Assembly (NCBI GenBank): GCA_963169765.1
Contig: CAUJEN010000048.1
Span: 1 to 64,000, forward strand
DNA length: 64,000 nt
Direction: 5' to 3'
DNA from: Vulcanimicrobiota bacterium
GTDB taxonomy: Bacteria; Vulcanimicrobiota; Xenobia; Xenobiales; QWHO01
Position 1 is the stretch's first letter, and the number at the start of each line of letters is the position of its first letter. The position numbers and the translations under genes were made by a program. Positions 22,239-64,000 of this stretch are shown in pieces. The notes under the pieces are model-generated. The model was not told where the DNA came from and searched no databases. It saw only the letters and a program-made list of their open reading frames with translations.

Positions 22239-22260
22239 GCTTCTTCGCGCCGCGCCAGGG

Positions 22261-22755: not shown

Positions 22756-22860
22756 GAGCGAAGGGTAGCACGCCCCCCGGCCGGGGGATGTATCGGGTTT
22801 GTTGCGGTTCGGGCGACCGACGGGACAGGGGCCGCTCGGAGCGAGCGAGAAACGGACCCA

Positions 22861-41231: not shown

Positions 41232-41261
41232 CGTCCAACGTTGAAGGGTACGGCCACCAGT

Positions 41262-41392
41262 GGGGCGCATTGCGTCCACGGTATAAACTGGATTGGGAAG
41301 GTTTGTTTGGCAGGATACCTGTCGAATGCCGGCCCACGAGCTTTGGATCGAACACGAAGGATCGAGGTGCTCAGGTGGCGCGAGCGGATCTG
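41262..41392 (+). repeat. ~130-bp leader element (includes TATAAA box, GAGGTG RBS and first codons of the AAA+ gene), copy A; near-identical copy at 63204-63332
   Basis: Direct alignment: GGGAAGGTTTGTTTGGCAGG(G)ATACCTGTCGAA(T/G)GCCGGCCCACGAGC and GGATCGAGGTGCTCAGGTGGCGCGAGCGGATC identical in both copies. Confidence 0.85.
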
Positions 41393-42331
41393 TTACTGGA
41401 CCTGGTCAGGGCCGGGACGCAAGGGGATCAGGCGCGCTTTCGCAAGGTCGTCGAGGCCTTGATTGCGGAGGAGCGCTCGAAGCAACACCACATTCTAGCT
41501 GACCACCTGAGTGCTCAGCTTCGCGTCAACGGGAACGGGAGCAAGACCAGCGTCGCTTTTCAGCGAGCCAGCGACTATTTCACCTCATCGATACCGCAAA
41601 GGACCTTCACCGATCTGGTCCTACCCGAGCCGGTTCTGGAAGCTTGCCGCGAGATCGTCGAGGAGCACCATCGACGCGAGGTCCTTTTCTCCCACAGCCT
41701 GGAGCCGCGACATCGCATCCTGCTGACCGGCCCCCCCGGGAATGGAAAGACTAGCCTGGCGGAAGCTCTGGCCACGGAACTCATGGTGCCGTTCTATCGC
41801 CTTCGCTACGAGAAGGTGATCGGCAGCTACCTGGGCGAAACCGCGCAGCGGCTGGCCAACCTCTTCGTCGAGGCGAGGGCTCAACATTGCGTGCTGTTTC
41901 TCGACGAGTTCGAAACGCTGGGAAAGGAGCGCGGGGACGAGCACGAGACCGGTGAGATCAAGCGGGTCGTTTCGTCCTTGCTTCTGGAGGTGGATGCCCT
42001 GCCGAGCCACACGGTGATCGTCACCGCTACCAACCACCCCGAATTGCTTGACCGGGCAGTGTGGCGCCGTTTCCAGGTTCAGCTCGAGCTGCCGGCTCCG
42101 GGCCCGGCACAGATTCGCGAGTGGTGGCAACGTTATCAGGCCGCCACGGGCCTCAAGCTGAAGCGCAACATTGACAATCTGACCGAGCGCTTCCGAGGAG
42201 CAAGCTTCTCGGACCTGGAGAATTTTGGGGCAGACCTGCAGCGTCGCTTTGTCTTAAGTCTCCCCGAGGCCTCCGTGGAGACCCTTCTGAGCAAGAGACT
42301 CAAACGGTGGAAGCCCCGAAAGCAGAGCTGA
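41375..42331 (+). CDS. AAA+ ATPase (classical AAA clade)
   Basis: Walker A LLTGPPGNGKTSLA, Walker B CVLFLDEFE, sensor-1 TATN, Arg finger region RAVWRRF; no in-frame ATG, GTG at 41375 preceded by GAGGTG RBS (ORF opens with TTG at 41270). Confidence 0.8.
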   Translation: MARADLLLDLVRAGTQGDQARFRKVVEALIAEERSKQHHILADHLSAQLRVNGNGSKTSVAFQRASDYFTSSIPQRTFTDLVLPEPVLEACREIVEEHHRREVLFSHSLEPRHRILLTGPPGNGKTSLAEALATELMVPFYRLRYEKVIGSYLGETAQRLANLFVEARAQHCVLFLDEFETLGKERGDEHETGEIKRVVSSLLLEVDALPSHTVIVTATNHPELLDRAVWRRFQVQLELPAPGPAQIREWWQRYQAATGLKLKRNIDNLTERFRGASFSDLENFGADLQRRFVLSLPEASVETLLSKRLKRWKPRKQS

Positions 42332-42342
42332 GTCCGACCTGA

Positions 42343-44895
42343 ATGCCCGACGCAACCAGCCATCCCCTCCTTCTACTGCCGAGACCAACCAGCGCCGAAC
42401 GTAAAGGCAAAGGCGGCGGGGGAGCAAAGCTCGCCAAACCCTCGCGCTCCGAGCAGGCACGGCGTCTTGGGCCCGAGCTGAGGTCGCTGACCCTGGCCTT
42501 GGAGCAGAAGCGCCTGCGGCTTCAGGCGGGGGTGAGCGGCATCGTCCCGGAGGAGGTGCTGGTTCTCGAAACAGCCGGGCCGGTCCAGAATTTTCTAAAC
42601 GCCGTCCGCAAGATCGAAGAGCTGGAATGGATGGCTGAGTGGGATCGCGACTTTGAGCCCGACGAGTACTTTCAGGACGCGAAGAGTCCGGAGAAGGTCC
42701 TGGGCGGGCGTCTGTACCTCGTCCTGACCACCGATGCCGCCATCAAGGATCTCCTGGCTCTCTGGAACCTGTGGGAGAAAGGCCAGAAACTCCCGACAGG
42801 ATTTGCTCCTTGGGGCGAGGCTTTCACCCATCTCAAGACGATCCGATTCTGGAATGCGCATGATCGTATGGAGGCCACCGGCGTTCTCGAGGACTGGGAG
42901 CGTCGCATCGAGTCCGGTGCCGAGCTCGTTCCGGCCGAAGTGGAGCTGTGGTTTCGTGCCGGTCCCGAGCGGAGAGCGAGGGCTGCGGAGAGAGTGCGAA
43001 CGCTGGTCGTGGGCTGTGGGGGCCGGGTTGTCCAGGTGGCCGCCATTGAGGAAATCCATTACCATGGGCTCCTGGTGGAGATCCCCCGAAGTGAGGTTCG
43101 TCGGCTGGACGAGATCGACGAGGTCGACCTCTTCCTCTGCGAGCAGGTCCAGTTCTTCCGCCCGGTTGGTCAGATGGTCGCACCGAGCAGCGAAGAGTCC
43201 ACCCCCGACGCGACGGAGCAATTTGCTGGCGAAGTCGCGGGGGAGCCGGTAGCTGCTCTGCTCGACGGGCTGCCTCTCGAGAACCATGACGTCCTGGCGG
43301 GCCGCCTCCTCGTCGACGACCCCGATGGTTGGGCCTCGGGTTATCCGGCAGCCCGGCGCGAGCACGGAACTTGCATGGCCTCGCTCATCGTGCAGGGAGA
43401 TCTCGAGCGGCCATCGGGGGGCCTCCCCCGCCCGTTGTACGTGCGCCCCATCATGCAGCCTGTGACCGGAGACTATCCAGGTACGGGGGAGCGTTGCCCC
43501 GAAGACCAGCTCCTGGTGGACCTGGTGCATCGTGCGGTGCGGCGGATGTTCGTCGGGGATGGTGGGTCCGGCCCGGTGGCGCCCACGATCAAGGTCATCA
43601 ATTTCTCGATCGGGGATCGGGACCGTCCTTATGATCACATGATGAGCCCGCTGGCTCGATTGCTGGACTGGCTCAGCTGGGAGCACAAGGTTCTGTTTGT
43701 CGTCAGCGCCGGCAATCAGCGTCGACCTATCGATCTGGACACCACTCGGCCCGCGTTTGAGGCTCTGGCTCCACCGGCTCGCGCCGACATGATCCTTTCC
43801 AAAACAAGAGAGGAGCACATTTATCGGCGCATCCTCTCGCCGGGCGAATCGATCAATGCTCTGACGGTGGGGGCAACCTACTCGGATCATTCGAGTCCGA
43901 CCGGCGCCGGCACGGTGTTCGTACTGCCTGGCGGCATCCCGGCTCCTTACACTCGGCAGGGACCAGGCTATCGTGGGATCATCAAGCCGGACCTGGTCAT
44001 TGCGGGCGGCCGGCTTCCGTTCCGGATAGACCTTGCCGCTCACACAAAGATTCATCTGGTGGAGGGCGTGCTGGCTCCCGGGCACAAGAGCGCGGCCCCG
44101 GGCCCGGGGCCAGGCCAACGCAACCGGACGCGCTACAGCCGGGGCACCAGCAACGCCGCCGCCCTGTTGACCCGCCAGGGTGCGAGGTTTACTGAGCTCC
44201 TGGCGAGTCTCCGCCGAGACCCTGGCGGCCAACTGCTTGATGAGGTCCCCGAGAGTCTCTTTCTGAAGGTCCTGCTCGTGCACGGCGCTCGCTGGCCCGA
44301 CGAGTGCGTCAGCCTCCTCACCCGAATTTCTGGATTCGCTCCGGAGAGCAAGGAAGGGCTGACGCTGACCCGACGGTTCACCGGTTATGGCCTGCCGAAC
44401 TTCGAGCGGGTTGCCTTCTGCACAGACCAGCGGGTGACCGCGCTGAGCGGTGGCGCACTGGAGGAGGACCAGGGCCACGTTCACAGCCTGCCGCTCCCGA
44501 CGGCACTTTCTGGTCAGCGAGGAAAGCGACGTGTCACGGTCACGCTGGCCTATTTCACGCCCGTGCAACCAGGCCGGCGAGAATACTCGGTCGCCGACCT
44601 CTGGTTCAAGATCGAGAATCGCGGCGTCCTGCAGCTTGAAGGCGCTGGCGCGGATTTCTATGCCGTCGAGCGCGGTACGGTGCAGCACACCATCTTTGAG
44701 GGAGAGCGCGCCAAAGTCTTCGATGACGAGGAGAGCCTGAACATCCAGGTGTCGTGTCGATCCCAGGCGGGCCCGATCGTGGAGCCGATTCCCTATGCCC
44801 TGGCCGTCACGTTGGAGGTGGCGCCGAAGCTGAATCTTCCCATTTATTCCCAGGTCCGAGAGCGTCTGCGCCTCAGGATTCGGCCTCAAGAGTGA
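42343..44895 (+). CDS. S8 subtilisin-like serine peptidase with ~300-aa N-terminal domain of unknown function
   Basis: Catalytic motifs LLDGLP (Asp), HGTCMASLI (His), VVSAGNQ (oxyanion Asn), GTSNAAALL (Ser); starts 11 bp after AAA+ stop. Confidence 0.85.
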   Translation: MPDATSHPLLLLPRPTSAERKGKGGGGAKLAKPSRSEQARRLGPELRSLTLALEQKRLRLQAGVSGIVPEEVLVLETAGPVQNFLNAVRKIEELEWMAEWDRDFEPDEYFQDAKSPEKVLGGRLYLVLTTDAAIKDLLALWNLWEKGQKLPTGFAPWGEAFTHLKTIRFWNAHDRMEATGVLEDWERRIESGAELVPAEVELWFRAGPERRARAAERVRTLVVGCGGRVVQVAAIEEIHYHGLLVEIPRSEVRRLDEIDEVDLFLCEQVQFFRPVGQMVAPSSEESTPDATEQFAGEVAGEPVAALLDGLPLENHDVLAGRLLVDDPDGWASGYPAARREHGTCMASLIVQGDLERPSGGLPRPLYVRPIMQPVTGDYPGTGERCPEDQLLVDLVHRAVRRMFVGDGGSGPVAPTIKVINFSIGDRDRPYDHMMSPLARLLDWLSWEHKVLFVVSAGNQRRPIDLDTTRPAFEALAPPARADMILSKTREEHIYRRILSPGESINALTVGATYSDHSSPTGAGTVFVLPGGIPAPYTRQGPGYRGIIKPDLVIAGGRLPFRIDLAAHTKIHLVEGVLAPGHKSAAPGPGPGQRNRTRYSRGTSNAAALLTRQGARFTELLASLRRDPGGQLLDEVPESLFLKVLLVHGARWPDECVSLLTRISGFAPESKEGLTLTRRFTGYGLPNFERVAFCTDQRVTALSGGALEEDQGHVHSLPLPTALSGQRGKRRVTVTLAYFTPVQPGRREYSVADLWFKIENRGVLQLEGAGADFYAVERGTVQHTIFEGERAKVFDDEESLNIQVSCRSQAGPIVEPIPYALAVTLEVAPKLNLPIYSQVRERLRLRIRPQE

Positions 44896-45416
44896 TCTGA
44901 CCAAGCCCCTTCCGGCCGGGCGAGGCCGCGCCCGGGCTGCGCGAGAGGAGGCCGAGAAGAGCTTCGAAGAAAGGTGAAGTACTATCAATGTCGCCATGGA
45001 GCAAGTGGGGATGCCGTGCAGCAAAGCAGAGATTCTGAAGAGTTCCAAATTCCCGAGGGGAGGGGCTCCCGAGTGGGCAGGCTCTTGTGCTTGCCACCAG
45101 AGAAGCGAGATCTCATCCTTGCTTTGGCATCCAGCATGGCGCAAAAGCTTTACCTCCGCAGGGACGACATCAATATGGACACGTGCCGTAGCAGTCAGAA
45201 CACCGGATCGTTTTGGGCATGTGTGCTCGCGTCAGTCCGAGGGTAGTATCCTCCAAGAACGCGGACGACGGGGAAACCCCTCTGTGATTCGTTTTCCGGT
45301 GATTCTTGGCAGGAATTGCACTCTCGCCGCGAAGAGTTGCCCGTGCCGCGAGTACCTGCTTCAACTCAGAGTGTTCTGGACATATTCCAGCTTTGCCGTC
45401 AGGTCGGCACATCGCC

Positions 45417-46811
45417 ATGTTGAAGCTCCTCCCGAACCGCAAGCCTTTCCCTCGGGGCCGCCTGCTCGCTCGCAGCGCGAGGACGGGCGTCCACCAGATG
45501 CTGCGCCAGGCCAACGAACCCTATTACTGGTACCGGAACAGGGACGACTATGCTCATGACCTCGGCGCCGAAGACCTCTTCCTGGACGACCTTGGCGTCT
45601 GGTTCTTCGAGCAGTTCGACACGAGCCTTCCGGCGTTCCCGTATCTAGGGGTCGCTCTTGGCCTGCTCATGGCTCGCTGGGATGACTTGAAGTCGGCTGT
45701 CGTACCTGCCAAGCCCTTCTGGAACCGGCACTACAACAGTAAGCGCAAGGCCCACGCGGGCGAGCCTCGCTCCCTGCTCCGACTCGACCGCGCCCGGGAT
45801 GCCCTGTCTTTGTCTCTCGGGGATCGCGTCGAAGGTCCGGACGTTGAGCGCGGTTTCGACTGGCGCCTTCTCCAGGGGCGTTACGGGCCGGAGCTCTTCT
45901 GGCCCCGCTGGTTCGATTTGCCCTACGAGCGTGCCCTGTGGCGGCTCTCGCCCAACCAGGAGTTCGAGCCGTGGAGCCCCTGGCTGTTGCTGCCAGAGGA
46001 GCTGAGACGCTTCCAGGACCTCGAGTTGCCGCAGCCACCGGACCGCTCAGATACTTCCTCCGGCGTCGAGCTGCCGGAGGGTTGGTCCCCGACCGTCCCC
46101 AGCTATGAGATTCTCCCGGTCGAGTTCTCCACGCCCGACCTGCCCCTGCGGGTCGGCGCCGAGGAGAAAGACCTGGCTCGATTCGAGCTACATGTGCTGG
46201 ACCAGGGTCCCAACCCAACCTGCGTCGCTCACGCCGTCTGCACCGCGCTCGACATTCTGCGCAAGCGCAAGCCTCGCCAGCGCGACCACCAGTTCTTCGC
46301 CCCTGCCGACCTCCACATGCGCTGCGGATCGAGCTGGTCCACCGGGCGGAAGCTCTCCGCGGTGATCGACGAGCTCCGGAAGGGCTTGCCTGCTAGCCAG
46401 ACCCCGAAGAGCCGACCAAACTATGGCTCCCCCACAGTCCGCGACCTGAGCGTGCGGGATATTCCCCGACTTAAGGCCCACCTCGCTGCCGGCTGGGTGG
46501 TGGTGATAACCACTTATTTGCCGGAGGAGACCTACCGCAGCAACGCCTTCCGCGAGTTTGGAGAGCCGTTGCGCCCACTCCCCGGCCAGCAACGCCGCAC
46601 ATCCGGCCACGCCTGGGCACTGGTCGGCTACGAGCACGTGGACGGCAACCAGCAGTGGAAGTATCAGGGCCGCTTCATCGCCCTGAACAGCTGGGGCCCG
46701 GGCTTTCCGGATAGACCGCGCCTCCGTCCAGGACTGGTCTCCCTCCCGTTCTCTTTTGTCTACAGCGAAGGGATCGAGGCTTACGCCTTGCGGCTGCCAA
46801 GCTGTGAGTGA
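45417..46811 (+). CDS. Papain-like (C1 family) cysteine peptidase, cytoplasmic
   Basis: QGPNPTCVAHAVCTALD (Gln/Cys region), HAWALVGYEH (His), NSWGPGF (Asn-Ser-Trp-Gly) matching papain catalytic landmarks; no signal peptide; start among 45306/45417/45498 uncertain. Confidence 0.6.
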   Translation: MLKLLPNRKPFPRGRLLARSARTGVHQMLRQANEPYYWYRNRDDYAHDLGAEDLFLDDLGVWFFEQFDTSLPAFPYLGVALGLLMARWDDLKSAVVPAKPFWNRHYNSKRKAHAGEPRSLLRLDRARDALSLSLGDRVEGPDVERGFDWRLLQGRYGPELFWPRWFDLPYERALWRLSPNQEFEPWSPWLLLPEELRRFQDLELPQPPDRSDTSSGVELPEGWSPTVPSYEILPVEFSTPDLPLRVGAEEKDLARFELHVLDQGPNPTCVAHAVCTALDILRKRKPRQRDHQFFAPADLHMRCGSSWSTGRKLSAVIDELRKGLPASQTPKSRPNYGSPTVRDLSVRDIPRLKAHLAAGWVVVITTYLPEETYRSNAFREFGEPLRPLPGQQRRTSGHAWALVGYEHVDGNQQWKYQGRFIALNSWGPGFPDRPRLRPGLVSLPFSFVYSEGIEAYALRLPSCE

Positions 46812-46826
46812 ATTCTGGAGGTGTGG

Positions 46827-48623
46827 ATGAGCCAGGGCGGCACGTTCGAGACTAAAGAGCCCTATCTTGTGGAGCTGCTGCGCAAGATCAGCCAGGGCAG
46901 GATCCAGTTGCCCGACTTCCAGCGCGGCTGGGTCTGGGATGACGGCCACATTCGCTCGCTGCTGGCCAGCGTAACCCTGTCCTACCCCATCGGAGCCGTC
47001 ATGCTGCTCGAGACGGGCTCGGAGACGGTCCGCTTCAAACCTCGTCTCTTCGAGGGAGTTTCGCTCTCGGACGACTGCCAGCCCGAGCGCCTGGCTCTGG
47101 ACGGCCAGCAGCGGCTGACCTCCCTCTACCTGGCCATCGCCAGCGGGCAGCCCGTCCCCACGCGGACCGAGAAGCGACAGGAGGTCCAGCGGCTCTACTA
47201 CCTCGACATGGAAGCGGCTCTTGACCCGGAGCGAGACCGCGAGGAGGCCGTGGTCTCCATACCCTCCTCACGGCAGGTCACCTCCGACTTCGGACGCAAG
47301 ATCGAGCTCGATCTGAGCGAGCCGCACCACGAGTATGCCCGGCGCATGTACCCGTTTCACTGCCTGTTTGACCAGAGTGGAGCCGGCTTCCGCTGGGAGA
47401 GCGGGTATCGCGAGCACTACCAGCACAGCCCGGAATCGAGCCAGTTCCTGATGCGGTTCCAGCAGCAGATCGTGATCCCGTTCCAGCAGTACCGCATCCC
47501 GGTTATCGAGCTCCTGAAGCAGACTCCCAAGGAAGCCGTGTGCCAGGTGTTCGAGAAGGTCAATACCGGCGGTGTCAGTCTGACCGTTTTCGAGCTCGTG
47601 ACCGCCTCCTTCGCCGCCGAGGACTTCCTGCTGCGCGAGGACTGGAATGATCGGGCTGGACGCTTGCGTGAGCGCAAGGTGCTGGAATCGATCGACGCCA
47701 GTGACTTCCTGACCGCCGCGACCTTGCTCACCACCTACGAGCGCAGCCAGTCGGGCAGGGGCCCGGTGAGCTGCAAACGCAAGGACATACTCGAGCGACT
47801 AGACCTGGAGGCCTACCGCCAGACCGCCCCGCGGGTCGAGGACGGTTTCCGGCGGGCATCCGAGTTCCTGGCCACGCAAAAGGTCTACGACTCCCGCAAC
47901 CTGCCCTACAAGACGCAGCTCGTCCCGCTGGCCGTTGTCTGTGCGCTTCTGGGCATGGACTACGACCAGGACCTCGTCCGCGACAAGCTTGCTCGTTGGT
48001 ACTGGTGCGGCGTTTTCGGCGAGCTCTACGGGGGGAGCACGGATGCGCGCTTTGCCTTTGACGTGCCGGAGCTGTGCGCCTGGATTCGCCAGCCCGACGG
48101 CCCGCTGCCCCGCACGGTGCAGGAATGCAATTTCGCCCCCACCCGTCTCCTGAGCATGCAGACCGGGGGGCGGGACTTCATGAATGGGGACGACATCGCC
48201 CTTACGACCTACTTCGATCTGGCCGTGGACATCCACCACGTGTTTCCGGCGGACTACTGCAAGAAGAGCCAGCTCCCCGAGCGCCAGTGGAACAGCGCGG
48301 TCAACAAGACCCCGCTGACGTCGCGCACCAACCGACGCGTCGGGGGACACGCGCCCAGCCACTATCTGCAGAGCCTGATCGCCGCCCGTGTCGTCGACCA
48401 GGCGAAGCTCGATCCGATTCTGCGCAGCCACCTGATCGATCCCGGTTTCCTCTGGGCGGATGACTTCTCGGGATTCCTGCGCTCGCGCGCGGCTCAGCTC
48501 CTGAGCGCGATCGAGCGAGCTACCGGGAAGGAGATTCCCGGCCTCGATTCCGACGAGGTCCGCGACAGCTTTGGAGGGCCGCTCCTGCGAGCTGATCCTG
48601 CTTCCACAGCGGCCCAGGGCTGA
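46827..48623 (+). CDS. GmrSD-family type IV restriction-like nuclease (DUF262 ParB-like N-domain + DUF1524 His-Me finger C-domain)
   Basis: N-term LPDFQRGWVWD (DUF262 signature), C-term VDIHHVFPADYCKK...NKTPLTSRTNR (DUF1524/HNH-like); ATG 46827 with GGAGG RBS. Confidence 0.8.
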   Translation: MSQGGTFETKEPYLVELLRKISQGRIQLPDFQRGWVWDDGHIRSLLASVTLSYPIGAVMLLETGSETVRFKPRLFEGVSLSDDCQPERLALDGQQRLTSLYLAIASGQPVPTRTEKRQEVQRLYYLDMEAALDPERDREEAVVSIPSSRQVTSDFGRKIELDLSEPHHEYARRMYPFHCLFDQSGAGFRWESGYREHYQHSPESSQFLMRFQQQIVIPFQQYRIPVIELLKQTPKEAVCQVFEKVNTGGVSLTVFELVTASFAAEDFLLREDWNDRAGRLRERKVLESIDASDFLTAATLLTTYERSQSGRGPVSCKRKDILERLDLEAYRQTAPRVEDGFRRASEFLATQKVYDSRNLPYKTQLVPLAVVCALLGMDYDQDLVRDKLARWYWCGVFGELYGGSTDARFAFDVPELCAWIRQPDGPLPRTVQECNFAPTRLLSMQTGGRDFMNGDDIALTTYFDLAVDIHHVFPADYCKKSQLPERQWNSAVNKTPLTSRTNRRVGGHAPSHYLQSLIAARVVDQAKLDPILRSHLIDPGFLWADDFSGFLRSRAAQLLSAIERATGKEIPGLDSDEVRDSFGGPLLRADPASTAAQG

Positions 48624-48763
48624 TTCGAAGAAGCGGAGGGATTACCGGTGGCCGATACGCTGCAAGACTCGGTCGACTCCGAGGACAAGGGATTCATCGA
48701 TGACACGCGGAGTTACATCACCCAGATCCAGACAACCTCAGGGGGTACCAGAGCGGCTATCCG

Positions 48764-56287: not shown

Positions 56288-58980
56288 GGCAAGAGATGAA
56301 TCAGGTGGACGTCGGTTCGAGAGTGCGGCATCCCCAGCACGGGACCGGAACGGTTCAGATGTGCCAGGGCGTTCTGGCCATTGTCGAGTTTGACGAGCCC
56401 GGCCTCCAGCGCGTTGAGGTAGGCGATCTCGAGCTGCTCGCCTCGGCGACCCGGGCGGTCGGGCGAGACCACTGGGATCCCCCCATCGCCACCACGACAC
56501 GGCTTCTGGCCGAGTCCATCCTGTCCGTCAACGACGCGTGGGGCGTTTTTGCTCCCTCGAACATCGACCTGCTTCCGCATCAGCTTTGGGTCTGCAAGAA
56601 GGTGAATCAGTTCTGGCCCACGCGATGGTTGGTGGCTGACGATGTCGGTCTCGGTAAGACCATCGAAGCCGGCCTGATCCTTTGGCCGCTTCTCTCGCGT
56701 GGGCAGGTTCGCCGGGTGCTCGTGCTGACTCCGGCTTCTCTCGTGGATCAGTGGCGCGAGCGCATGTACGAGATGTTTGACATTCGGCTTCAGGCCTATC
56801 GCGCCGACGAGGACCGAGGTCGGGTGAACTTCTGGGAGCGCGAGAACCAGGTTGTCGCTTCCTTTCATACCCTGAGACTGGACCGGAACCAGCGTCACGA
56901 GAGAATCCTCAAGGCCCCGCCCTGGGACCTGGTCATCGTGGATGAGGCCCATCACCTGAACAGCGATGAGGAGCTTGGGCCCACTCGGACCTATCGTTTC
57001 GTGCAGCAACTCGAGGAGGCCGGTCTGATCGAGTCCATGGTCTTCTTCACCGGTACTCCCCATCGCGGGAAAGACTGGGGATTTCTGTCCCTCATGCAGC
57101 TGCTTCGCAAGGAGCTGTTCAACCCTCGCAAGCCTGCCGCTGAGCAGCTCGGCCACCTGCCATCGGTCATGATACGCAACAACAAGTATTCGGTGACCGA
57201 CCTGGAAGGACGGCGCCTCTTCCAGCCTCCCAAAGTGCGCCAGATCGATTACAAGTACAGCTCTGACGAGCAAGACTTCTACGATCTGATCTCGGATTTC
57301 ATCCAGAATGGCTATGCCTATTCCAACCGCCTGAACGTGACGATGGGAAATGCGGTCACGCTGGTGCTGATCGCGATTCAGAAGCTGGCGGCCAGCTCGG
57401 TGGCGGCGGTACTTCGTGCCCTGCGCAAACGCCTGCAGCTCCATGGCCAGCGGCGGACCCAGCGCGACTCCTTCGAGGCCCATCTCGAGCAAATTCGGGA
57501 GGCAAGCGCGAATCTGGACCTCGATCGGGCGGCCGAGCTGGAAGCAGCCCTGGCGGAGATCGCCGGCGACCTCGTGCTCATGGAGGACGAGGTTCCCCAT
57601 CTCGAGGAGCTGATCGTCGCGGCCGAGCGAGTGCGCTCGGAAACGAAGATCGAGCTCATTCTCGACCTGCTCGAGAAGGAGTATGCCGGTCGTCAGGTTC
57701 TGTTTTTCACGGAGTACAAGGCCACCCAGTCCCTGTTGCTGTCCCGTCTCAACGCTCGATTTGGCGAGGGGCTCACGGCATTCATCAACGGAGACGAGCG
57801 CGCCGAGGAGGTGAGGGATGCGGAGGGGCAACTTCGAACCCTGCGAATGCCCCGAGCTGAGGCGGCTGAGGCCTTCAACTCGGGCAAGGCGACCTATCTG
57901 ATCTCGACGGAAGCGGGCGGCGAGGGGATCGACCTTCAGGAGCGCTGCCACACGCTGATTCACGTCGACCTCCCATGGAACCCGATGCGGATGCACCAGC
58001 GGGTAGGTCGGCTCAATCGCTACGGTCAGAAGCGGCAGGTCGAGGTGGCGGTCGTCAGAAACCGAGCCACGGTCGAGTCGAGAATCTTCGACCGATTGAC
58101 CGAGAAGATTCATTCCATCAACCGGGCCTTCGACGAAGTCATGGAGGAGCCGGAGGACCTCTTCAACCTGATCTTGGGGTTCGCGTCGGGCCAGTTTTTC
58201 AACGACCTCTACGCAAGCGCCCGCAGGTCGTTCAGTGGCGACGACGACGACGAGCGCTTGAGTCGCTGGTTCGACTTCAAAACCGGCAGCTTTGGAGGCC
58301 AGGACGCGATCGCCACGGTGAAGGGGCTGATCGGCAACGTGGCCCGCTTCAATTTCCAGCAGGTATCCGAGGATTTACCCAAGGTCAATCTGCCCGACCT
58401 GAAGCCGTTTTTCGAAGCGATGCTCACGCTGAATCACCGCCGGCCGACCTACGAGGGGCACAGTCTGTCGTTCATCACTCCGGATGAATGGCGCGAAGAG
58501 CGCGGAATCCAGCCGAGATACTCGGGCCTTCACTTCGACCGGACCGTGCGTGACCGCGAAGCCCGCAAGGGAATTCTGGGAGTCGGACAGAGGTTGATGG
58601 ACCTGGCTCTCTCGCAAGCGAGGGGGCGTACCGAAACCCTGACCGGTTTCACCAAGAGCAGCCAGCCGGGACCCTTGTTCGTCTTCCGCATCCGGGACCG
58701 GATCACGAGAGGAAATACCTCGGTTCGCTTTCAGATCGCGGGAGTCCACGATAACGGGAAGACCCTGCGGCTTCTCAAAGACTGGGAGCTCGTTCTCCAA
58801 CTCAACTCGACACTTGAGAGAGGAGCCGCTAGAGATGAGCCACAGCGCCCGCTGGTCTCGGGCGAGCAGGTGGAGAGCGGGATTGATCGGGCCAGGAGTT
58901 TTCTCGAGTCGCGCCTTCCTTCCATGGACCTGCCGTTCCAGCATCCGGACGTCGAGGTACTGGGGACAATCTGGAAATAG
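56284..58980 (+). CDS. SNF2/SWI2-family helicase with N-terminal UvrD-C-terminal-like Tudor domain
   Basis: N-term GSRVRHPQHGTGTV (UvrD/PcrA C-terminal Tudor-like), motif I WLVADDVGLGKTIEAG, Ia LVLTPASLVDQW, II LVIVDEAHHLNS, V LISTEAGGEGIDLQ, VI HQRVGRLNRYGQ. Confidence 0.85.
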   Translation: MRQEMNQVDVGSRVRHPQHGTGTVQMCQGVLAIVEFDEPGLQRVEVGDLELLASATRAVGRDHWDPPIATTTRLLAESILSVNDAWGVFAPSNIDLLPHQLWVCKKVNQFWPTRWLVADDVGLGKTIEAGLILWPLLSRGQVRRVLVLTPASLVDQWRERMYEMFDIRLQAYRADEDRGRVNFWERENQVVASFHTLRLDRNQRHERILKAPPWDLVIVDEAHHLNSDEELGPTRTYRFVQQLEEAGLIESMVFFTGTPHRGKDWGFLSLMQLLRKELFNPRKPAAEQLGHLPSVMIRNNKYSVTDLEGRRLFQPPKVRQIDYKYSSDEQDFYDLISDFIQNGYAYSNRLNVTMGNAVTLVLIAIQKLAASSVAAVLRALRKRLQLHGQRRTQRDSFEAHLEQIREASANLDLDRAAELEAALAEIAGDLVLMEDEVPHLEELIVAAERVRSETKIELILDLLEKEYAGRQVLFFTEYKATQSLLLSRLNARFGEGLTAFINGDERAEEVRDAEGQLRTLRMPRAEAAEAFNSGKATYLISTEAGGEGIDLQERCHTLIHVDLPWNPMRMHQRVGRLNRYGQKRQVEVAVVRNRATVESRIFDRLTEKIHSINRAFDEVMEEPEDLFNLILGFASGQFFNDLYASARRSFSGDDDDERLSRWFDFKTGSFGGQDAIATVKGLIGNVARFNFQQVSEDLPKVNLPDLKPFFEAMLTLNHRRPTYEGHSLSFITPDEWREERGIQPRYSGLHFDRTVRDREARKGILGVGQRLMDLALSQARGRTETLTGFTKSSQPGPLFVFRIRDRITRGNTSVRFQIAGVHDNGKTLRLLKDWELVLQLNSTLERGAARDEPQRPLVSGEQVESGIDRARSFLESRLPSMDLPFQHPDVEVLGTIWK

Positions 58981-59261
58981 GTCACCTCGGACCCCCATAA
59001 ATGGCTTTCAGTCGCGATTCATGAGGCCGAAACTTCTTGGCTCGATTCGGAAACTCCGTTTTCAGCGGAGTTGGTAACCTGTTGGGATCGAGGACCTGCT
59101 CTACATGGACGAGGTCGAGCAATTTTCCGATTGAACCGCATCGACGTATGGAATTTGCCCGTACGGCCGACGTCGCGCCAGGCGTGTCGGATCTGACAGG
59201 AGGCCGAGGCGGTCTGCGAGAAAGATGAATCATTCTCAACGTTGCGAAGGAGCGCAGAAGC

Positions 59262-59579
59262 ATGCAGTCCATCCAGCCGGAGGAGCTCAAGGTCCGTGCC
59301 CAGATCAAGGAGCGCTTTTTGGACGCCGTGAAGCGTTCTGGATCGGGTAGCCGGGCCAGCGCTCTTGTGGCGGCCCTTCGCAAGCACACCGATGCTCCGG
59401 AAATCAAGATTCAGTCCGTTTTTCTGCAGCTTCTCGACGAGGGCAAGATTACCGTTGGCCAGGATCTGCTCGTGCGCCTGGCGCCCAAGCTCGAAGCCGA
59501 AGAGCAGCCGAAGAAAGCCCAAAAGCAGGCCTCGGCCAGGGTCAAAGCAGCCACGAAGATAACCATCCCGGCCAGATAG
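59262..59579 (+). CDS. Small conserved hypothetical protein (105 aa) with Lys-rich C-terminal tail; paralog at 63633
   Basis: AAGGAG RBS 9 nt upstream; ~93% nucleotide identity over ~300 bp with 63568-63870; MQSIQPEELKVRAQIKERFLDAVKRSGSG...ITVGQDLLVRLAP. Confidence 0.55.
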   Translation: MQSIQPEELKVRAQIKERFLDAVKRSGSGSRASALVAALRKHTDAPEIKIQSVFLQLLDEGKITVGQDLLVRLAPKLEAEEQPKKAQKQASARVKAATKITIPAR

Positions 59580-60203
59580 ATGACTTTGCGCGAGGATCGG
59601 CGCACGACTACGTCGATGAAGATCAAAGAACGCCCGGTCAGCGAGATCGCGATCGAGTCCATTACTCTCAGGCGATGGTGCGCCTCCCAGGTCGTCAGTT
59701 CGGGAGAGGTACAACAACCGATTGAGCCAAACGTTCAAAGTAGCCCAGGTCGGCCGTCGATTGGCGGAAAGGTTGCGTGAGGAATCGCCCCAGCTTGGGA
59801 GACGGGCTCATCGACGGAAAGCCCTTCGAGGACACCAGACCCATTCTCGGGCTTGCGCCGCCTGTTGGAGCAGAACGAGGCCGAGCTGCGCCGGTGCAGT
59901 CTCAACCTGCCCGTCTGGCGTGACCTCTTGCGCAGCCACGGCCGCAACATCGCCGCCGCCTGGCGCCATTGGGAGCACGAGAGCGAGCTGCGCGCCCGGC
60001 TGGCCGAAGTGGCGGCGAGTGACGGGTTGTCCATCGGTTCTGCCGGGTTCAGGATTTCGATCGGGTGTTGCTGGCTCGACGAGCCTTGATTGATTCTGGA
60101 AGGTGGCCTGCGTGCCTGAGAGGGCGCATCGAGTTTCGAAGCACGTCGGGCTATTCCCACTGCCAGGTAGGCGAAGGAGTGTTTCCGTCGAATTCCCGGC
60201 TCC

Positions 60204-61046
60204 GTGGGGCGGAAGCTGCAAGCACGACTCTCTTCGAAATGTCGCGTCGACGACGAGACGCACTTTGCTCGCAGGCCGCCGGGTTATTTCGAGGCAATCG
60301 CAGAGGACCGGAGCCTGACGACCTGCCCGCGGTGCGGGGGTCCGGCGGTGCGCGAGCCTCCTGCGCTCGTGCTTCGCGACGGGGTCGAATCGACCGAAGA
60401 GGTGCTCCGGTGCCTGGCGCAGTGTGATGTCCCGGTTCGCGCCCGCAAGCCTCGCGAGCGGTGCCCCTGTGGCTGCGGCGAGTGGCTCCCGTATGGACAC
60501 GTCTACTACAGTGAGGCGTGTCGTCGGCGCGGCGAGCCCCTCTGTGCTTGCGGGTGTGGGCGTCAGGCTGCGGGACAGCGCAAGTACGCGATATACGCCT
60601 GCAGTCGACGGGGGCCCCAGGAAGAGCGCAACGCGTGCGCATGCGGATGTGGGCGTCTGGCATGGGGCGACCGCAAGTACGCCACTCGGCAATGCCTGCA
60701 GCGGGGACTGCAGGCCGGACGGGACACGGCACGTCCGAGGCCCCGGAAACCTCTGCGGCTCTGCTTGTGCGGTTGTGGGGAACTCACCGAGCGTCTCACC
60801 GCCACGCGCCAGTGCCGCACGCGGCTCACGGTCTGGAAGGACGAGCTCGAGGAGTGCTTGACCTGGCTCCGCGAGCTTCCGGCCAAGGACCGTCGGCCTA
60901 CGCTCGAACTGGCGGAGGAGCGACTGGCCGGTGGTCGCGGCGCACCCCTGAAAACCACGCTGGGGAGGGTGTTGCAAATCGCCAAGAAGCTGGGCCCTTC
61001 CGGGTCGGAGTTCTTTCGGATGCTCTCGCGTCACCTGGAAGACTGA
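60204..61046 (+). CDS. Hypothetical Cys-rich protein with four tandem ~24-aa C-x-C-G-C-G ... C repeats (putative zinc-binding)
   Basis: CPCGCGEWLPYGHVYYSEACRRRG / CACGCGRQAAGQRKYAIYACSRRG / CACGCGRLAWGDRKYATRQCLQRG / CLCGCGELTERLTATRQCRTRL; preferred over the antisense 430-aa ORF. Confidence 0.45.
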   Translation: MGRKLQARLSSKCRVDDETHFARRPPGYFEAIAEDRSLTTCPRCGGPAVREPPALVLRDGVESTEEVLRCLAQCDVPVRARKPRERCPCGCGEWLPYGHVYYSEACRRRGEPLCACGCGRQAAGQRKYAIYACSRRGPQEERNACACGCGRLAWGDRKYATRQCLQRGLQAGRDTARPRPRKPLRLCLCGCGELTERLTATRQCRTRLTVWKDELEECLTWLRELPAKDRRPTLELAEERLAGGRGAPLKTTLGRVLQIAKKLGPSGSEFFRMLSRHLED

Positions 61047-61233
61047 ATCAGGGACCATGACGCCCTTTGGCCCCATCACGCGCTGGATCACCCGGGGCAC
61101 CAGCTTTCAACGAATGTGGCCCGAGCCTGATCGACGAGTGGGTGGCCCATGCTCGTGTGCTGCACGACCTGCCGGGCGGACCCTTCGAGACCCGGTTCAC
61201 CGCGACCATGGCGCGGCGCTCGTCGCAGCCAGC

Positions 61234-62319
61234 CTATCGGCTCGCCATACGGACCATTCGTCGAGCCTTCTTCCGCCGCTCCTTTCGGTTCAGCCCGCGC
61301 TCGCCCACCTCGAACAGGTCGGCCAGGTGGACGGCGACCTGCCGGCCGTCGGCCATCTCGACCACGAGGCGGGCCCCGGGCCGGAGGCCATGGGGATAGT
61401 CGGCTCGCTCCGAGAGGAGGCGGAGAAGCTCGAGCAGGTCCTGCAGCAGGGCGTGCTCGGCAGGCCCTGGCATTCCGCCGTGCGGGCACAGGACCAGGGG
61501 GACCAGATCGGACTCCTCGACCAGCGGGAAGTCATGTTCTTCAATCTCGTCCATCAGCTCGCTCGGAATGTCCTCAACGCAGCTGTAGGTAAAGCTGATA
61601 AGGTTGGATGCCTCAATCAGGTCCTGGTTCTGGTTGGCCAGGGCCAGGACCGCCGCCTGATCCAGATAGATGGAGAGTCCCCGCTCGATGTCGGCGGCTC
61701 CCATCACGCTGAAGGACAGCCCAGGGGTGAGCCCCTCCACTTGAAAGAGCAACTGGTCGTCGATTCCCTGCTCCCACGGGGCCAGGTCCCACAGGGCGCG
61801 CGCTTCCGCGAACAGTCGACGGACCTGCTCGACGGTTACGCCGGGGGGCCGGAGGTAGGTGAGGGTCGGACCGAACAGGGAGTCTTCGATCTCCCGAAAG
61901 ACAGGTAGGAGAGCCTCCGGGTCTGGCAGCGCGGTGACCTGGATGCCGAGGCGGCTCAAGGGCGGACCGAGGGCCTGGACCAGCTCCGGACGGACGGCCA
62001 CCGTCTGCGGACGACAGGGCCTGACTTTGGGCTCGCTGGTCAGGATCGCCTCCTCGAGACTCTCGAGCACCACCTCGACGGTGGACCGGTCGGTGTCGTA
62101 AGGTCCGGCTGAGCGCAGGAGGCCCGAATGCGCCTCCTGCCACAGGGAGAGCCCGTAGCGGGCTTCTCCTGCGATGGCGTCCAGGGGCTGAAAGTCCCCC
62201 AGCCAGAGGGCTCCCGCCCGCTGGGGAGTCTGGAGCAGGCGAGCCTCCACTTCGGGTTGCAGCTGACATTCCGGTGAATTGCTCATGATCGGTCTCCTCA
62301 TGCGTTTTCTTTCAGGCAC
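61234..62319 (-). CDS. Hypothetical acidic protein
   Basis: Protein-like diverse composition; likely start MSNSPEC at 62286; overlaps upstream gene stop by 8 bp. Confidence 0.45.
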   Translation of the reverse strand: MPERKRMRRPIMSNSPECQLQPEVEARLLQTPQRAGALWLGDFQPLDAIAGEARYGLSLWQEAHSGLLRSAGPYDTDRSTVEVVLESLEEAILTSEPKVRPCRPQTVAVRPELVQALGPPLSRLGIQVTALPDPEALLPVFREIEDSLFGPTLTYLRPPGVTVEQVRRLFAEARALWDLAPWEQGIDDQLLFQVEGLTPGLSFSVMGAADIERGLSIYLDQAAVLALANQNQDLIEASNLISFTYSCVEDIPSELMDEIEEHDFPLVEESDLVPLVLCPHGGMPGPAEHALLQDLLELLRLLSERADYPHGLRPGARLVVEMADGRQVAVHLADLFEVGERGLNRKERRKKARRMVRMASR

Positions 62320-63124
62320 AGCTCGTCTCGTAGAGGGCGGTCTCCATCCGGGTGATGGAGCGACGAGCCTGCGTCAACTGTTGCCGCACAGCGCCGACAT
62401 CGGGGTCTGAGGACGATAGTGACGCCAGTTGTGCCGCTGCGCGTATCAGCGAGAACGCGGCGCTTTGAGCCGGGGAGCTCCCGCCGCGGAGCTTCTCGGT
62501 CGCGTCCAGGATCGAGCGCAGGACCGGCCCGAAGTCAGTCGCGTGCGGGAGCTGGCGGGGCCTGGGCGGCTGCGGCTCTAGCCCAAGACTGTGAATGATC
62601 TCGCCTCGTCTGCGGGCCAGAGCATAGTCTTCGGCGGCGTGCCGACGGGCTCCGCCGCCAAAATGAACGTTGGACAGGCTGAGGAAGCCGTCGTAGGTGA
62701 TCCGGTCCTCAAAGGGGAGCAGGGTGGTCTGGATGCAGGCCGGGCACTGCCCGCAGAGCAGATCCTGGAGGGGCTGGGTCAGACCCTGCACGCAGTAAAA
62801 CCGGTACGGCTTTCCTCCGCCGAGGATGGCTCCCTTCCTCAGATAGCGGTGAACGAGGAATGAGGCCCGGATGAATCCCCTCCACGAGCCGACGAGCTCC
62901 AGCGCGCGCCCGCCAAGCCGGTCCGGATTCTCCTGGTGGTATGCCGCGATCCACTCAGGGCTCTCGAAGAGCCTGGTTCGCAGAGGCGCGAGCTGCTCGG
63001 GCGACAGCCGCGTGGACTCGAAGTCGTCGGGCAGATCCAGGACTCTGAGGTGCCGGTTGAGATACCGATCCAGACCGCCGAGCAGCTGGAGGACGAGTTG
63101 TCGGTCGGGGGGTGAGAGAATCAC
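62312..63124 (-). CDS. Hypothetical protein (270 aa) with CGQCPAC motif
   Basis: ATG at 63124 (MILSPPDRQLV); co-oriented with downstream hypothetical gene; diverges from leader-element copy B. Confidence 0.45.
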   Translation of the reverse strand: MILSPPDRQLVLQLLGGLDRYLNRHLRVLDLPDDFESTRLSPEQLAPLRTRLFESPEWIAAYHQENPDRLGGRALELVGSWRGFIRASFLVHRYLRKGAILGGGKPYRFYCVQGLTQPLQDLLCGQCPACIQTTLLPFEDRITYDGFLSLSNVHFGGGARRHAAEDYALARRRGEIIHSLGLEPQPPRPRQLPHATDFGPVLRSILDATEKLRGGSSPAQSAAFSLIRAAAQLASLSSSDPDVGAVRQQLTQARRSITRMETALYETSCA

Positions 63125-63203
63125 GGGTCGAGCTCCTTGGGAAGGTACTGTGAGAGGAATTCAAGTCGGCGGGTGGAGCACCTCCAGAACGGTTGTTCTG
63201 AAG

Positions 63204-63332
63204 TGGGCGCTTGCGTCCAGGGTATTACACTGGAGCGGGAAGGTTTGTTTGGCAGGGATACCTGTCGAAGGCCGGCCCACGAGCCCTGGCTCGATCAGAG
63301 GGATCGAGGTGCTCAGGTGGCGCGAGCGGATC
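63204..63332 (+). repeat. Copy B of the ~130-bp leader element; the embedded AAA+-like reading frame terminates after 6 codons (VARADQ*)
   Basis: Alignment with 41262-41392; GTG GCG CGA GCG GAT CAG TGA at 63317-63337. Confidence 0.85.
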
Positions 63333-63632
63333 AGTGATCTGGCAAGGCCCCGGAAGCGCTGGAGAGCACTTGGACCGACCGACTCAATCGGGAAAGCTCC
63401 GGGGAATAGCTCTTTCAACGCACGAACGGCCGCCGTCGCCTCGGGCGGGCAGCTTCTGGACGACCTGAAGCGACCAGCAGCGAAGCAGACCCAGGCAGCG
63501 GAAATTGTGCCCAGTCCTTGGGCATTGGAAACCTGCCGGCCAGGCGAGGCCGGCCCGGGCTGCGCGACAGGAAGCCGAGGATCGCTTCGAGAAAGATGAA
63601 ACATTCTCAACGTGGCGAAGGAGCGCAGAAGG

Positions 63633-64000
63633 ATGCAGTTCATCAAGCCGGAGGAGCTCAAGGTCCGTGCCCAGATCAAGGAGCGCTTCTTGGATGCCGT
63701 GAAGCAGTCTGGATCGGGTCGCCGGGCCAGCGCTCTCGTAGCGGCCCTTCGCAAGCAGACCGATGCTCCGGAAATCAAGATTCAGTCCGTTTTTCTGCAG
63801 CTTCTCGACGAGGGAAAGATAACCGTTGGCCAGGATCTGCTCGTGCGCCTGGCACCCCACGCGCTCGAAACTGAAGAACACCCATATCAGCGAGAGCACG
63901 GCTCGAGTTCAGGACCCCCTGTCCGCCAGTCCCACGTCGGGACAAGCCCTGCGCGGGCCGCTGGGAACCTGTCGTTGAACCTCAGCCCCGGCAGCATTGA
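63633..64000 (+). CDS. Paralog of the small 59262 protein, C-terminus diverged, runs to window end
   Basis: MQFIKPEELKVRAQIKERFLDAVKQSGSGRRASALVAALRKQTDAPEIKIQSVFLQLLDEGKITVGQDLLVRLAP identical in most positions to 59262 protein. Confidence 0.5.
   Translation, partial: MQFIKPEELKVRAQIKERFLDAVKQSGSGRRASALVAALRKQTDAPEIKIQSVFLQLLDEGKITVGQDLLVRLAPHALETEEHPYQREHGSSSGPPVRQSHVGTSPARAAGNLSLNLSPGSI

Follow-up and report, generated by a model that had tools for sequence, protein, structure and literature searches.

The window analysed here is a stretch of 64,000 nucleotides (64 kb) from one uncultured high-GC bacterium, and it contains a defence island with BrxD, a DruE/BrxH-like helicase, PglW, IetAS and GmrSD. 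Downstream of the PglW stop codon at 41231 lies a block of genes, referred to as copy A, that runs from a leader element through IetAS and further cargo genes to a small gene. Related pieces of this block recur beyond a spacer as a much shorter copy B (Table 1).

Table 1. Features of copies A and B and of the DNA between them. IG denotes the intergenic elements discussed in the text.
Feature	Position	Strand	Evidence or remark
Leader A	41263..41393	+	PglW-to-ietA intergenic region, RBS, GTG start (41375), first 6 ietA codons
ietA, AAA+ ATPase of IetAS	41375..42331	+	PADLOC PDLC04232 E 3e-136; Pfam AAA E 1e-30
ietS, S8 subtilase of IetAS	42343..44895	+	PADLOC PDLC04233 E 7e-296, full length; Pfam Peptidase_S8
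IG#1 block a	44908..44941	+	GC-rich hairpin, 13 nt beyond the stop of IetS
IG#1 block b	44942..45040	+	Decayed small-gene upstream region, ATG (45011), about 10 codons
Protein without assigned function, about 480-501 aa	45306..46811	+	Recurs in defence islands
GmrSD-family type IV restriction enzyme	46821..48623	+	Pfam GmrSD_N E 2e-28
Giant 2507-aa protein	48764..56287	+	Sacsin/GHKL-like ATPase regions; Pfam SACS E 1e-19
SNF2 helicase, DrmD-like	56284..58980	+	PADLOC DrmD PDLC02634 E 1e-264, full length
IG#2 block b	59195..59261	+	Small gene A upstream region with RBS; 86.6% to 63566-63632
Small gene A	59262..59579	+	105-aa orphan, helical, Lys-rich tail; codon periodicity 0.71/0.37/0.74
Spacer between copies A and B	59510..63204	.	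3.7 kb, three genes
Cys-rich repeat protein (spacer)	60204-61046	+	
DUF6930/DUF7309 protein (spacer)	61234-62286	-	
270-aa protein (spacer)	62312-63124	-	
Leader B	63205..63335	+	Copy of leader A ending in truncated ietA; confirmed in contig L008
Filler	63336..63531	+	196 bp, in place of IetAS in copy B
IG-B mosaic	63532..63632	+	Block a (63532-63565) IG#1-like, block b (63566-63632) IG#2-like
Small gene B	63633..64000	+	Codons 1-83 paralogous to A, unrelated tail past window end

Judged by its profile matches, copy A encodes both members of the IetAS defence system, IetA and IetS, complete and at full length. This anti-phage system, which Gao et al. are said to have described in 2020, reportedly consists of the AAA+ ATPase IetA and the S8 subtilase IetS. 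The IetA profile match covers residues 37-352 of the ORF and begins at the GVG-start residue, and ietS starts 12 nt after the ietA stop in the same orientation. PglW, IetA and IetS are also adjacent in a distant MAG (L034), with identities of 41%, 58% and about 48%, respectively. Because this adjacency is conserved, leader A appears to be in its ancestral place. We record as an observation in its own right that both of these distant genomes show linkage between a PglW-like kinase and IetAS.

Within the window, blastn aligned leaders A and B with 118 of 133 positions identical (88.7%, E 3e-41), and the last 38 nt are 95% identical, including an exact run of 32 nt. An earlier note on this DNA had called the leaders near-identical; the repeat is indeed present at the places given there and exceeds chance, but its copies are better described as similar. 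The ietA stub of copy B reads GTG GCG CGA GCG GAT CAG TGA from the GTG at 63317, and the frame thus stops after 6 codons, with TGA following GAT CAG, as had been read from the sequence. Since leader B holds the ietA RBS, the GTG, 6 codons and then a stop, the leader derives from the ietA gene; it is part of the IetAS defence operon and no neutral flank. The leader had also been described as promoter-like, but a scan of it and of the IG regions revealed no sigma-70-like promoter above shuffle expectation. It folds with a z-score of -2.7 relative to shuffles, and the two copies, 89% identical, differ without compensatory changes. An Rfam scan of 40900-64000 (E<=1) returned a chance miRNA match and nothing else.

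The product of the first gene behind IetAS had no direct match in Pfam, NCBIfam, PADLOC or PDB. It has 57 homologues, which elsewhere adjoin GmrSD, SNF2 and methyltransferases, and PF00112 was precomputed in only 2 of the 57. The label ‘C1 peptidase’ proposed earlier is not backed by a direct family match; the product may be a distant papain-like peptidase. The giant protein also matches NCBIfam P_loop_sacsin (E 1.5e-27), its PADLOC matches to TmtA are weak, and the SNF2 helicase contains the Pfam domains SNF2-rel_dom and Helicase_C. We regard both the papain-like/GmrSD pair and the giant sacsin-like GHKL/DrmD-like pair as candidate defence modules.

The small gene and 67 nt of its upstream region are repeated between 59195-59509 and 63566-63883 with an identity of 90.6% over 318 columns (E 6e-125), or 92% when counted ungapped over 292 nt. 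An estimate of about 93% had been close, and the repeat lies where it had been placed, beyond chance. The spacing of about 300 bp between leader and small gene in copy B was likewise read correctly (leader end 63335, small-gene ATG 63633). The similarity between small genes A and B ends inside the ORF at 59509 (codon ~83), and the C-terminal tails are unrelated. In contigs L097 and L004, from which the DNA downstream of the window was taken, the small B protein has 153 aa. Its tail is without codon periodicity (0.65/0.69/0.65), as expected for read-through past a rearrangement breakpoint. Over codons 1-75, the two genes show 94% nucleotide identity, with a dN of 0.033, a dS of 0.149 and a dN/dS of 0.22. 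Small gene B, the only intact ORF left in copy B, appears to be under purifying selection. We also note that an orphan small protein seems to have been retained here in two copies under such selection. Database searches suggest that this protein is a lineage-restricted orphan: only 2 homologous clusters were found among 5.8e9; phmmer against 1.84e9 representatives returned the protein itself and a spurious match to the Ig-like repeats of a 2123-aa surface protein; and Pfam, NCBIfam, PHROGs and PADLOC gave no match. The single PDB sequence match, to MCM6 (E 0.04), was taken as chance, and with an AlphaFold2 single-sequence model (pLDDT 67) Foldseek found nothing in the PDB with E<3.

The small-gene upstream region occurs a third time directly after the IetS stop, in a partial and more diverged form; this copy is IG#1 (44908-45040), and its stretch 44908-45002 aligns to 63532-63624 at 81% (E 2.5e-18). 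Its block a matches 63532-63564 at 31 of 34 positions (91%), and the hairpin that is predicted in both copies is probably a terminator; an intrinsic terminator scan of the leader and IG regions gave nothing above shuffle expectation. Block b of IG#1 shares 71% identity with copy B and 68% with IG#2, with local alignment scores of 69 and 57, respectively, against a shuffle maximum of 37. Because it is 29-32% diverged from both other copies, this block is likely older. The DNA after it is non-coding to about 45305: there is no codon periodicity in 45011-45305, and small-gene remnants after IG#1 did not rise above shuffles. Upstream of IG#2, a marginal, position-consistent trace of block a is present (11 of 500 shuffles reach the observed score). 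The 14.25-kb segment 44942-59194 is itself bracketed by two IG element copies. The corresponding element of copy B is a mosaic, its block a being 91% identical to IG#1 and 57% to IG#2, and its block b 86.6% to IG#2 and 71% to IG#1. The folds of the IG elements have z-scores of +0.6, 0.0 and -0.75 relative to shuffles.

Copy B therefore reads, in order, leader, 196-bp filler, IetS-trailing hairpin, small-gene upstream region and first 83 small-gene codons. The repeat blocks (leader, block a, block b with the small gene) follow one another in the same order in copies A and B, all on the + strand. Their divergence between A and B is 11.3% for the leader, 8.8% for block a, 13.4% for block b and a dS of 0.149 for the small gene, all estimated from short blocks of 34-225 nt with wide errors. 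The breakpoints, at ietA codon 6 and small-gene codon ~83, ignore gene boundaries, and the edges are sharp, with no likeness above shuffles beyond them. The filler has no detectable relative in the window, its blastn and Smith-Waterman scores being within those of shuffles, and it shows no codon periodicity. The spacer resembles neither copy A nor the DNA downstream of copy B. Gene callers chose an antisense 416-aa ORF (59808-61058) within the spacer, which we rejected as non-protein-like in favour of the Cys-rich ORF on the + strand.

The junctions of the window were confirmed by independent contigs from other samples, namely PglW-leader A-IetA (L011, L095), IetS-IG#1-cargo (L092), SNF2-small A (L003, L001) and 270-aa gene-leader B-filler-small B (L008, L097). 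L008 covers 61169-63675 at 99.9%, and L097 is 100% identical to 63317-64000 and reaches past the window end. Two further contigs have recombinant junctions. L004 (GCA_013328955.1) carries SNF2, the 5' part of an A-type small gene, a B-type 3' tail and the downstream genes, with the A-to-B switch inside a 57-nt identical run, at about 59383-59439 in copy A and 63754-63810 in copy B. L010, from SRR28483937, reads 270-aa gene(-)-leader B-IetA, with the switch inside the 32-nt identical run, 41362-41393 in leader A and 63304-63335 in leader B. These junctions may be real variants or assembly chimeras, and L004 could accordingly represent a single-copy state for the small gene or a chimera.

Copy B is probably a gutted duplicate of this 18-kb block of predicted anti-phage genes, and its presence would reflect ordinary genome churn in a defence island; a conserved insertion hotspot is unsupported. 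As to its origin, we consider it most probable (about 0.6) that the whole block, 41263-59509 (18.2 kb, ietA leader to small-gene codon ~83), was present in a second copy that was subsequently gutted. The earlier note had raised a deletion remnant as one option, and this is supported by the ietA RBS, start and 6 codons, the IetS-trailing hairpin and the collinear pieces with ~9-15% divergence. Indeed, copy B retains the two ends of the IetAS operon but lacks the IetAS ORFs. The repeats with their extents and divergences, the mosaic and the identities of the genes are shown by the sequence, and from these we infer the order of events and the deletion mechanisms as follows. The 14-kb segment with the peptidase-like, GmrSD, GHKL and SNF2 genes would have been bracketed by IG#1 and IG#2 before the duplication. 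The similar divergence of all blocks points to one event, such that the duplication would have happened once, about 0.12-0.15 substitutions per site ago. It may have been a tandem duplication, since a period of 21,942 bp sets leader B exactly at the start of the second unit, or it may have produced a dispersed copy; acquisition of the block from a relative would fit equally. Copy B would then have lost IetAS (3.5 kb, beginning with codon 7 of ietA and reaching 12 nt beyond the stop of IetS), with the filler in its place, and the 14.25-kb segment (44942-59194), probably via the short homology between IG#1 and IG#2, leaving the chimeric IG-B.

Several points speak against this duplication and decay. 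With a tandem origin, the second copy of 59510-63204 must also have been deleted, as a third such loss, and the downstream paralogue of the Cys-rich, DUF6930 and 270-aa genes that a pure tandem duplication predicts after small gene B was not found. The filler is unaccounted for. IG#1 and IG#2, now only 68% identical, would serve homologous recombination poorly; an illegitimate event at an 11-nt run common to both (AGGAGGCCGAG) would then have removed the cargo, unless the deletion is older than its appearance suggests. Furthermore, a uniform divergence of ~10-15% is equally expected if the pieces of copy B came from a ~10% diverged relative, and the genomes compared did not include the ancestral single-copy state.

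Import from such a donor is the essence of one alternative, in which 4.37 kb of circular DNA (59510-63883) was integrated in Campbell fashion by a single homologous crossover in the small gene. The circle would have carried tail A, the Cys-rich, DUF6930 and 270-aa genes, a decayed leader-filler-IG stretch and the small-gene 5' part. Its donor would have been a ~10% diverged relative or a paralogous locus, copy B would be an imported decayed IetAS locus, and L004 would show the unoccupied or excised state. The 318-bp direct repeats do flank the segment, the uniform ~10% divergence fits a single donor, the switch in L004 falls within the 57-nt run of identity, the place at which a homologous crossover is expected to resolve, and the order in L010 is a circular permutation of such a donor locus. 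However, the switches in L004 and L010 fall exactly within the longest stretches of identity (57 nt and 32 nt, respectively), and De Bruijn graph assemblers can make chimeras at such stretches. The Logan contigs L092, L095, L096, L006 and L097 (k=31) break precisely at that 32-nt run. Moreover, L010 does not contain an old intact B-type operon, because its IetAS part matches copy A over 2666 bp with 0 mismatches, and the 4.37 kb hold no plasmid, phage or recombinase gene. We therefore regard this route as unlikely. A patchwork inserted in one step by MMBIR-like template switches into a break at 63204/63884 would do without a full second 18-kb copy and without large deletions. Apart from filler, the pieces would be the leader (131 bp), block a (34 bp) and block b joined to the 5' portion of the small gene (318 bp); they are short, collinear, equally oriented and about equally diverged, and the origin of the filler was not traced. 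On the other hand, the patches match the operon 5' end, the terminator and the promoter with the small-gene 5' part, and such functional boundaries are better predicted by selective retention after deletion than by random template switching. A microhomology analysis would be indecisive after about 12% divergence. Overall, we judge this patchwork improbable.

A mis-join in the source assembly can be dismissed almost entirely. Although this is a metagenome-type assembly and contigs of other samples fragment at the repeats, copy B with its unique filler is spanned by L008 and L097 from different samples, the junctions of copy A are spanned by L011, L092, L001 and L003, and the copies differ by 9-11%, so that reads were not collapsed. 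The earlier note had also proposed a defence-cassette insertion or swap site, with the leader and the IG-small gene unit as conserved flanks, copy B empty and copy A filled. The bracketing of the 14.25-kb segment by two IG copies, its position within the defence island and the occurrence of its modules elsewhere in other contexts agree with such a site. Against it, one ‘flank’ contains the first 6 ietA codons, the IetS-trailing hairpin is also found in copy B, the PglW-IetAS adjacency is ancestral, the small protein is an orphan, and the IG folds are no stabler than shuffles. The flanks do not recur either: leader, IG, small gene and cargo genes were found in 0 of 80 related IetAS loci from other species, a leader 20-mer found one unrelated low-GC chance match in JGI metagenome contigs, and a small-gene 32-mer found none in IMG/VR. 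A search for recombinases revealed no recombinase, transposase or integrase domain in the scanned ORFs of the 64-kb window or in 10 kb downstream on L004. The comparison of cargo in related genomes that had been suggested showed no variation, the cargo being identical in all strain-level contigs. This comes near to the simple local segmental duplication named as a refutation, but it covers near-identical strains only; the best IetA match among GTDB species representatives is 62% identical, with no close relative among them. A hotspot with exchanged cargo thus seems very unlikely.

The direct repeats are nested, with the 131-bp leaders at a distance of 21.9 kb and the 318-bp small-gene repeats at 4.4 kb, and a bolder reading is that they are active recombination substrates that excise, delete or tandemly amplify the IetAS/GmrSD/GHKL/SNF2 block in natural populations. 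We think this rather doubtful. If true, L010 would be a circle or tandem junction and L004 a deletion product, and homologous recombination would act as a switch that sets whether a 22-kb defence block is present and in how many copies, while each junction keeps the orphan small gene. With duplication and decay as the preferred reading, the locus would be a worked example of defence-island remodelling, in which duplication of a whole multi-system block was followed by pruning that spared only its regulatory ends and one small gene, and in which the leftover direct repeats are able to drive further gain or loss. The locus also shows that repeated ‘flanks’ around defence genes are not necessarily the sign of an insertion hotspot. 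These results open no long-standing question, and the PglW-IetAS link, the candidate modules and the orphan protein may outweigh the repeat itself in worth.

Compared with IetAS as known, copy A has the same intact IetA-IetS pair, with a 12-nt gap, but here it lies directly downstream of a PglW-like NERD/kinase, as in L034, and the genome retains a second ietA leader with a 6-codon stub. Defence hotspots with conserved flanks are known from P2/P4 satellites, from core hotspots of E. coli and P. aeruginosa, and from integron cassettes. The present locus shares with them the defence genes between repeated elements within a defence island, whereas its flanks are absent from every other genome examined, its cargo does not vary, there is no integrase or attC-like structure, and a cargo gene contributes its 5' end as one ‘flank’. 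It resembles att-flanked genomic islands in having a 22-kb block between 131-bp direct repeats and, in L010, the junction expected of a circle or tandem form. Unlike in such islands, an integrase is lacking, the repeats share 89% identity rather than being identical, a search for integron or integrative-island sites found no attC-like structure or identical att repeats, and the point of crossover is inside the longest stretch of identity, a position that either homologous recombination or a chimeric assembly would give. Relative to segmental duplication with deletional decay in bacteria, the locus is distinguished by a 196-bp filler, whose source was not traced in the window, and by fragments that are operon regulatory ends and an orphan gene. 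It shares with this process the collinear direct repeats in the same orientation, the uniform divergence, the boundaries that run through ORFs, the fragmentary state of one copy and the retention of one paralogue.

Comparison of the window with itself bore out the two repeats described in the earlier note, as well as its claim that the second copy's reading frame ends after six codons. The leader of copy A (41263-41393) matches that of the 'empty' copy B (63205-63335) at 118 of 133 positions (88.7%, blastn E 3e-41), with a 32-nt identical run at the 3' end of the pair, and small gene A taken together with the 67 nt before it (59195-59509) is 90.6% identical to 63566-63883 (E 6e-125). From the conserved GTG, copy B reads GTG GCG CGA GCG GAT CAG TGA, i.e. 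six codons and a stop. The repeat edges are sharp and disregard gene boundaries. An assembly artefact is ruled out as the source of the repeats, because independent contigs from other samples bridge every junction of the window: PglW-leader A-IetA (L011, L095, L096), IetS-IG#1-cargo (L092 to L094, IG#1 being the region after the IetS stop), SNF2-small gene A (L001, L003) and 270-aa gene-leader B-filler-small gene B (L008, L097).

The gene map shows that the leader takes in the PglW-to-ietA intergenic region, the ribosome-binding site and start codon of ietA, and that gene's first six codons, and so forms the 5' end of the IetAS operon, not a neutral flank. Among 80 IetA-related loci fetched from GTDB species representatives (best 62% identical), a single one, L034, encodes a full-length PglW-like protein (41% identity over its whole length) immediately 5' of IetA-IetS, the arrangement seen in the window; leader A therefore sits in its ancestral context, and PglW plus IetAS may be a conserved association. 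This NERD/tandem-kinase gene and IetA-IetS span 37227-44895 in the window and 1526-9405 in L034, a distant MAG. Both leader copies fold somewhat better than shuffled sequences (z -2.7); no compensatory changes were found between the two, which share ancestry. Searches for Rfam families and sigma-70-like promoters found neither.

Copy B consists, in this order, of the leader, a 196-bp filler with no relative anywhere in the window, blocks a and b of an intergenic (IG) element, and small-gene codons 1-83. In IG#1, block a is a GC-rich hairpin (44908-44941) that starts thirteen nucleotides past the IetS stop. Block b (44942-45040) comes next; it is a degraded version of the sequence that precedes the small gene, with an ATG and about ten small-gene-like codons, and is followed by non-coding sequence as far as about 45305. 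The same hairpin lies in copy B (63532-63565), directly 5' of its block b and small gene. Block a of copy B is 91% identical to IG#1 and only 57% to IG#2, the region 5' of small gene A; its block b is 86.6% identical to IG#2 and only 71% to IG#1. The IG elements fold no better than shuffled sequences. All pieces of this collinear mosaic are about 9-15% diverged from their A counterparts (leader 11.3%, block a 8.8%, block b 13.4%, dS 0.149 at synonymous sites of the small gene), which supports the earlier suggestion that copy B is a deletion remnant. Block b of IG#1 differs from each of the other two copies by 29-32% and is therefore older than the A/B split. Over the N-terminal 75 codons, comparison of small genes A and B counts 7.5 synonymous against 5.5 non-synonymous changes (dN/dS 0.22; p roughly 0.01-0.02 by our own binomial estimate), and on this departure from neutrality both copies seem to be maintained.

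We consider copy B to be best explained, with a probability of roughly 0.6, as a decayed partial duplicate of the defence block. A 14.25-kb peptidase-like/GmrSD/GHKL/SNF2 segment would already have been bracketed by IG#1 and IG#2 when everything from the leader through codon 83 of the small gene was copied once. The second copy would then have lost IetAS (3.5 kb, now the filler) and the 14.25-kb segment, the latter with its junction at the a/b boundary, where AGGAGGCCGAG is common to IG#1 and IG#2. We grade this three-step order as the simplest reading. It fits the sharp, gene-ignoring edges, the repeat spacing of 21,942 bp, which places leader B exactly where a second tandem unit should start, and the C-terminal tail of small gene B, whose lack of codon periodicity is what read-through past a breakpoint should produce. 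Most of the remaining confidence goes to variants of this idea, in which copy B was imported by recombination or arose in one step as a patchwork.

Two contigs have unusual junctions. In L004 (GCA_013328955.1), SNF2 and an A-type small-gene 5' part are followed directly by a B-type tail and the genes downstream; 59510-63883 is missing, and the switch falls inside a 57-nt identical run. In L010 (Logan SRR28483937), the 270-aa gene and leader B lead into IetA-IetS; here the switch falls inside the 32-nt run, and the IetAS part shows no mismatch to copy A in 2666 bp. Homologous recombination between the repeats would yield such junctions, through deletion in the one case and through excision or tandem amplification in the other. 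De Bruijn graph chimeras would look exactly the same, and other Logan contigs (k=31) break at this 32-nt run. An active role of the repeats in excising or amplifying the 22-kb block in natural populations is, in our view, improbable. Were L004 real, a rival origin would be the integration of a 4.37-kb segment through one crossover at the small gene, which would leave copy B a decayed IetAS locus all the same.

The proposal that conserved flanks delimit a hotspot of cargo exchange found no support. None of the 80 loci shows DNA similarity to leader or IG, or encodes homologues of the small, 270-aa, DUF6930, Cys-rich, 500-aa, GmrSD or giant GHKL proteins, and a leader 20-mer gave only a chance match in JGI metagenome contigs. 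The small protein is an orphan: its only two clusters among 5.8e9 proteins are both from this organism, exhaustive phmmer against 1.84e9 representatives returned nothing real, searches for family, PDB sequence and fold matches came back empty, and a small-gene 32-mer has no match in IMG/VR. Neither the window nor the 10 kb downstream yielded a recombinase domain, and contigs of near-identical strains all hold the same cargo. Downstream of small gene B, L004 (2802-6236) carries five minus-strand genes without Pfam matches, followed by pilin-like (N_methyl) genes and one for a Ser/Thr kinase, and no integrase; the right edge of the island thus appears to lie near small gene B.

Genes of the defence island
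Feature	Position	Strand	Match
BrxD	27331-28647	+	
1202-aa protein, function unassigned	28583-32191	+	
DruE/BrxH-like helicase with MZB domain	31998-37199	+	
PglW-like NERD/kinase	37227-41231	+	PADLOC PglW, E = 0
IetA	41375-42331	+	E 3e-136
IetS	42343-44895	+	E 7e-296
Protein of about 500 aa, function unassigned	45306-46811	+	
GmrSD	46821-48623	+	
2507-aa sacsin/GHKL-like protein	48764-56287	+	
DrmD-like SNF2 helicase	56284-58980	+	E 1e-264
Small gene A	59262-59579	+	
Cys-rich repeat protein	60204-61046	+	
DUF6930/DUF7309 protein	61234-62286	-	
270-aa protein	62312-63124	-	
Small gene B	63633 onward	+	

The island occupies the right half of the high-GC window (about 60-72%). Outside it, 12020-14482 (-) encodes an 820-aa protein in which a Major Vault Protein shoulder domain (E 4e-28) is combined with an SPFH/Band 7 domain, which is unusual in bacteria. 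The proteins encoded at 17319-19193 and 21835-26541 both carry adenylate/guanylate-cyclase domains that fit Pycsar cyclase models (E 2e-27 and 2e-10, respectively); in the latter protein the domain is fused to AAA_16 and TPR in a STAND-like arrangement. A 62-bp tandem repeat (20119-20376, 4.2 copies, 96% matches) lies immediately 5' of ORF 20370-22238 and extends over its start; CRISPR was rejected, as whole units are repeated. Motifs of the form CxCGCG...RKYA...C recur in the Cys-rich protein (DNA repeat 60543-60589/60636-60682). In its place, gene callers on public contigs pick an antisense 416-aa ORF (59808-61058, -), whose Pro/Arg/Ala-rich translation looks non-protein-like.

The label 'C1 peptidase' has no direct support for the ~500-aa protein itself, and 2 of its 57 homologues carry a precomputed PF00112 (Peptidase_C1) match. 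The family recurs beside GmrSD-like or ~600-aa proteins, SNF2 helicases and Eco57I-type methyltransferases (compared at 45306-48623 in the window, 10001-13362 in contig L099 and 7234-11539 in contig L101) and is therefore a candidate defence gene. BrxD and the DruE/BrxH-like helicase lie upstream of the PglW-like gene, but PglX and PglZ were not detected. In the 2507-aa giant, residues 1-87 and about 1596-1770 form two sacsin/GHKL-like ATPase regions, and its gene overlaps that of the DrmD-like helicase by 4 nt. Together (48764-58980), the two may form a defence module with no match among complete known systems.
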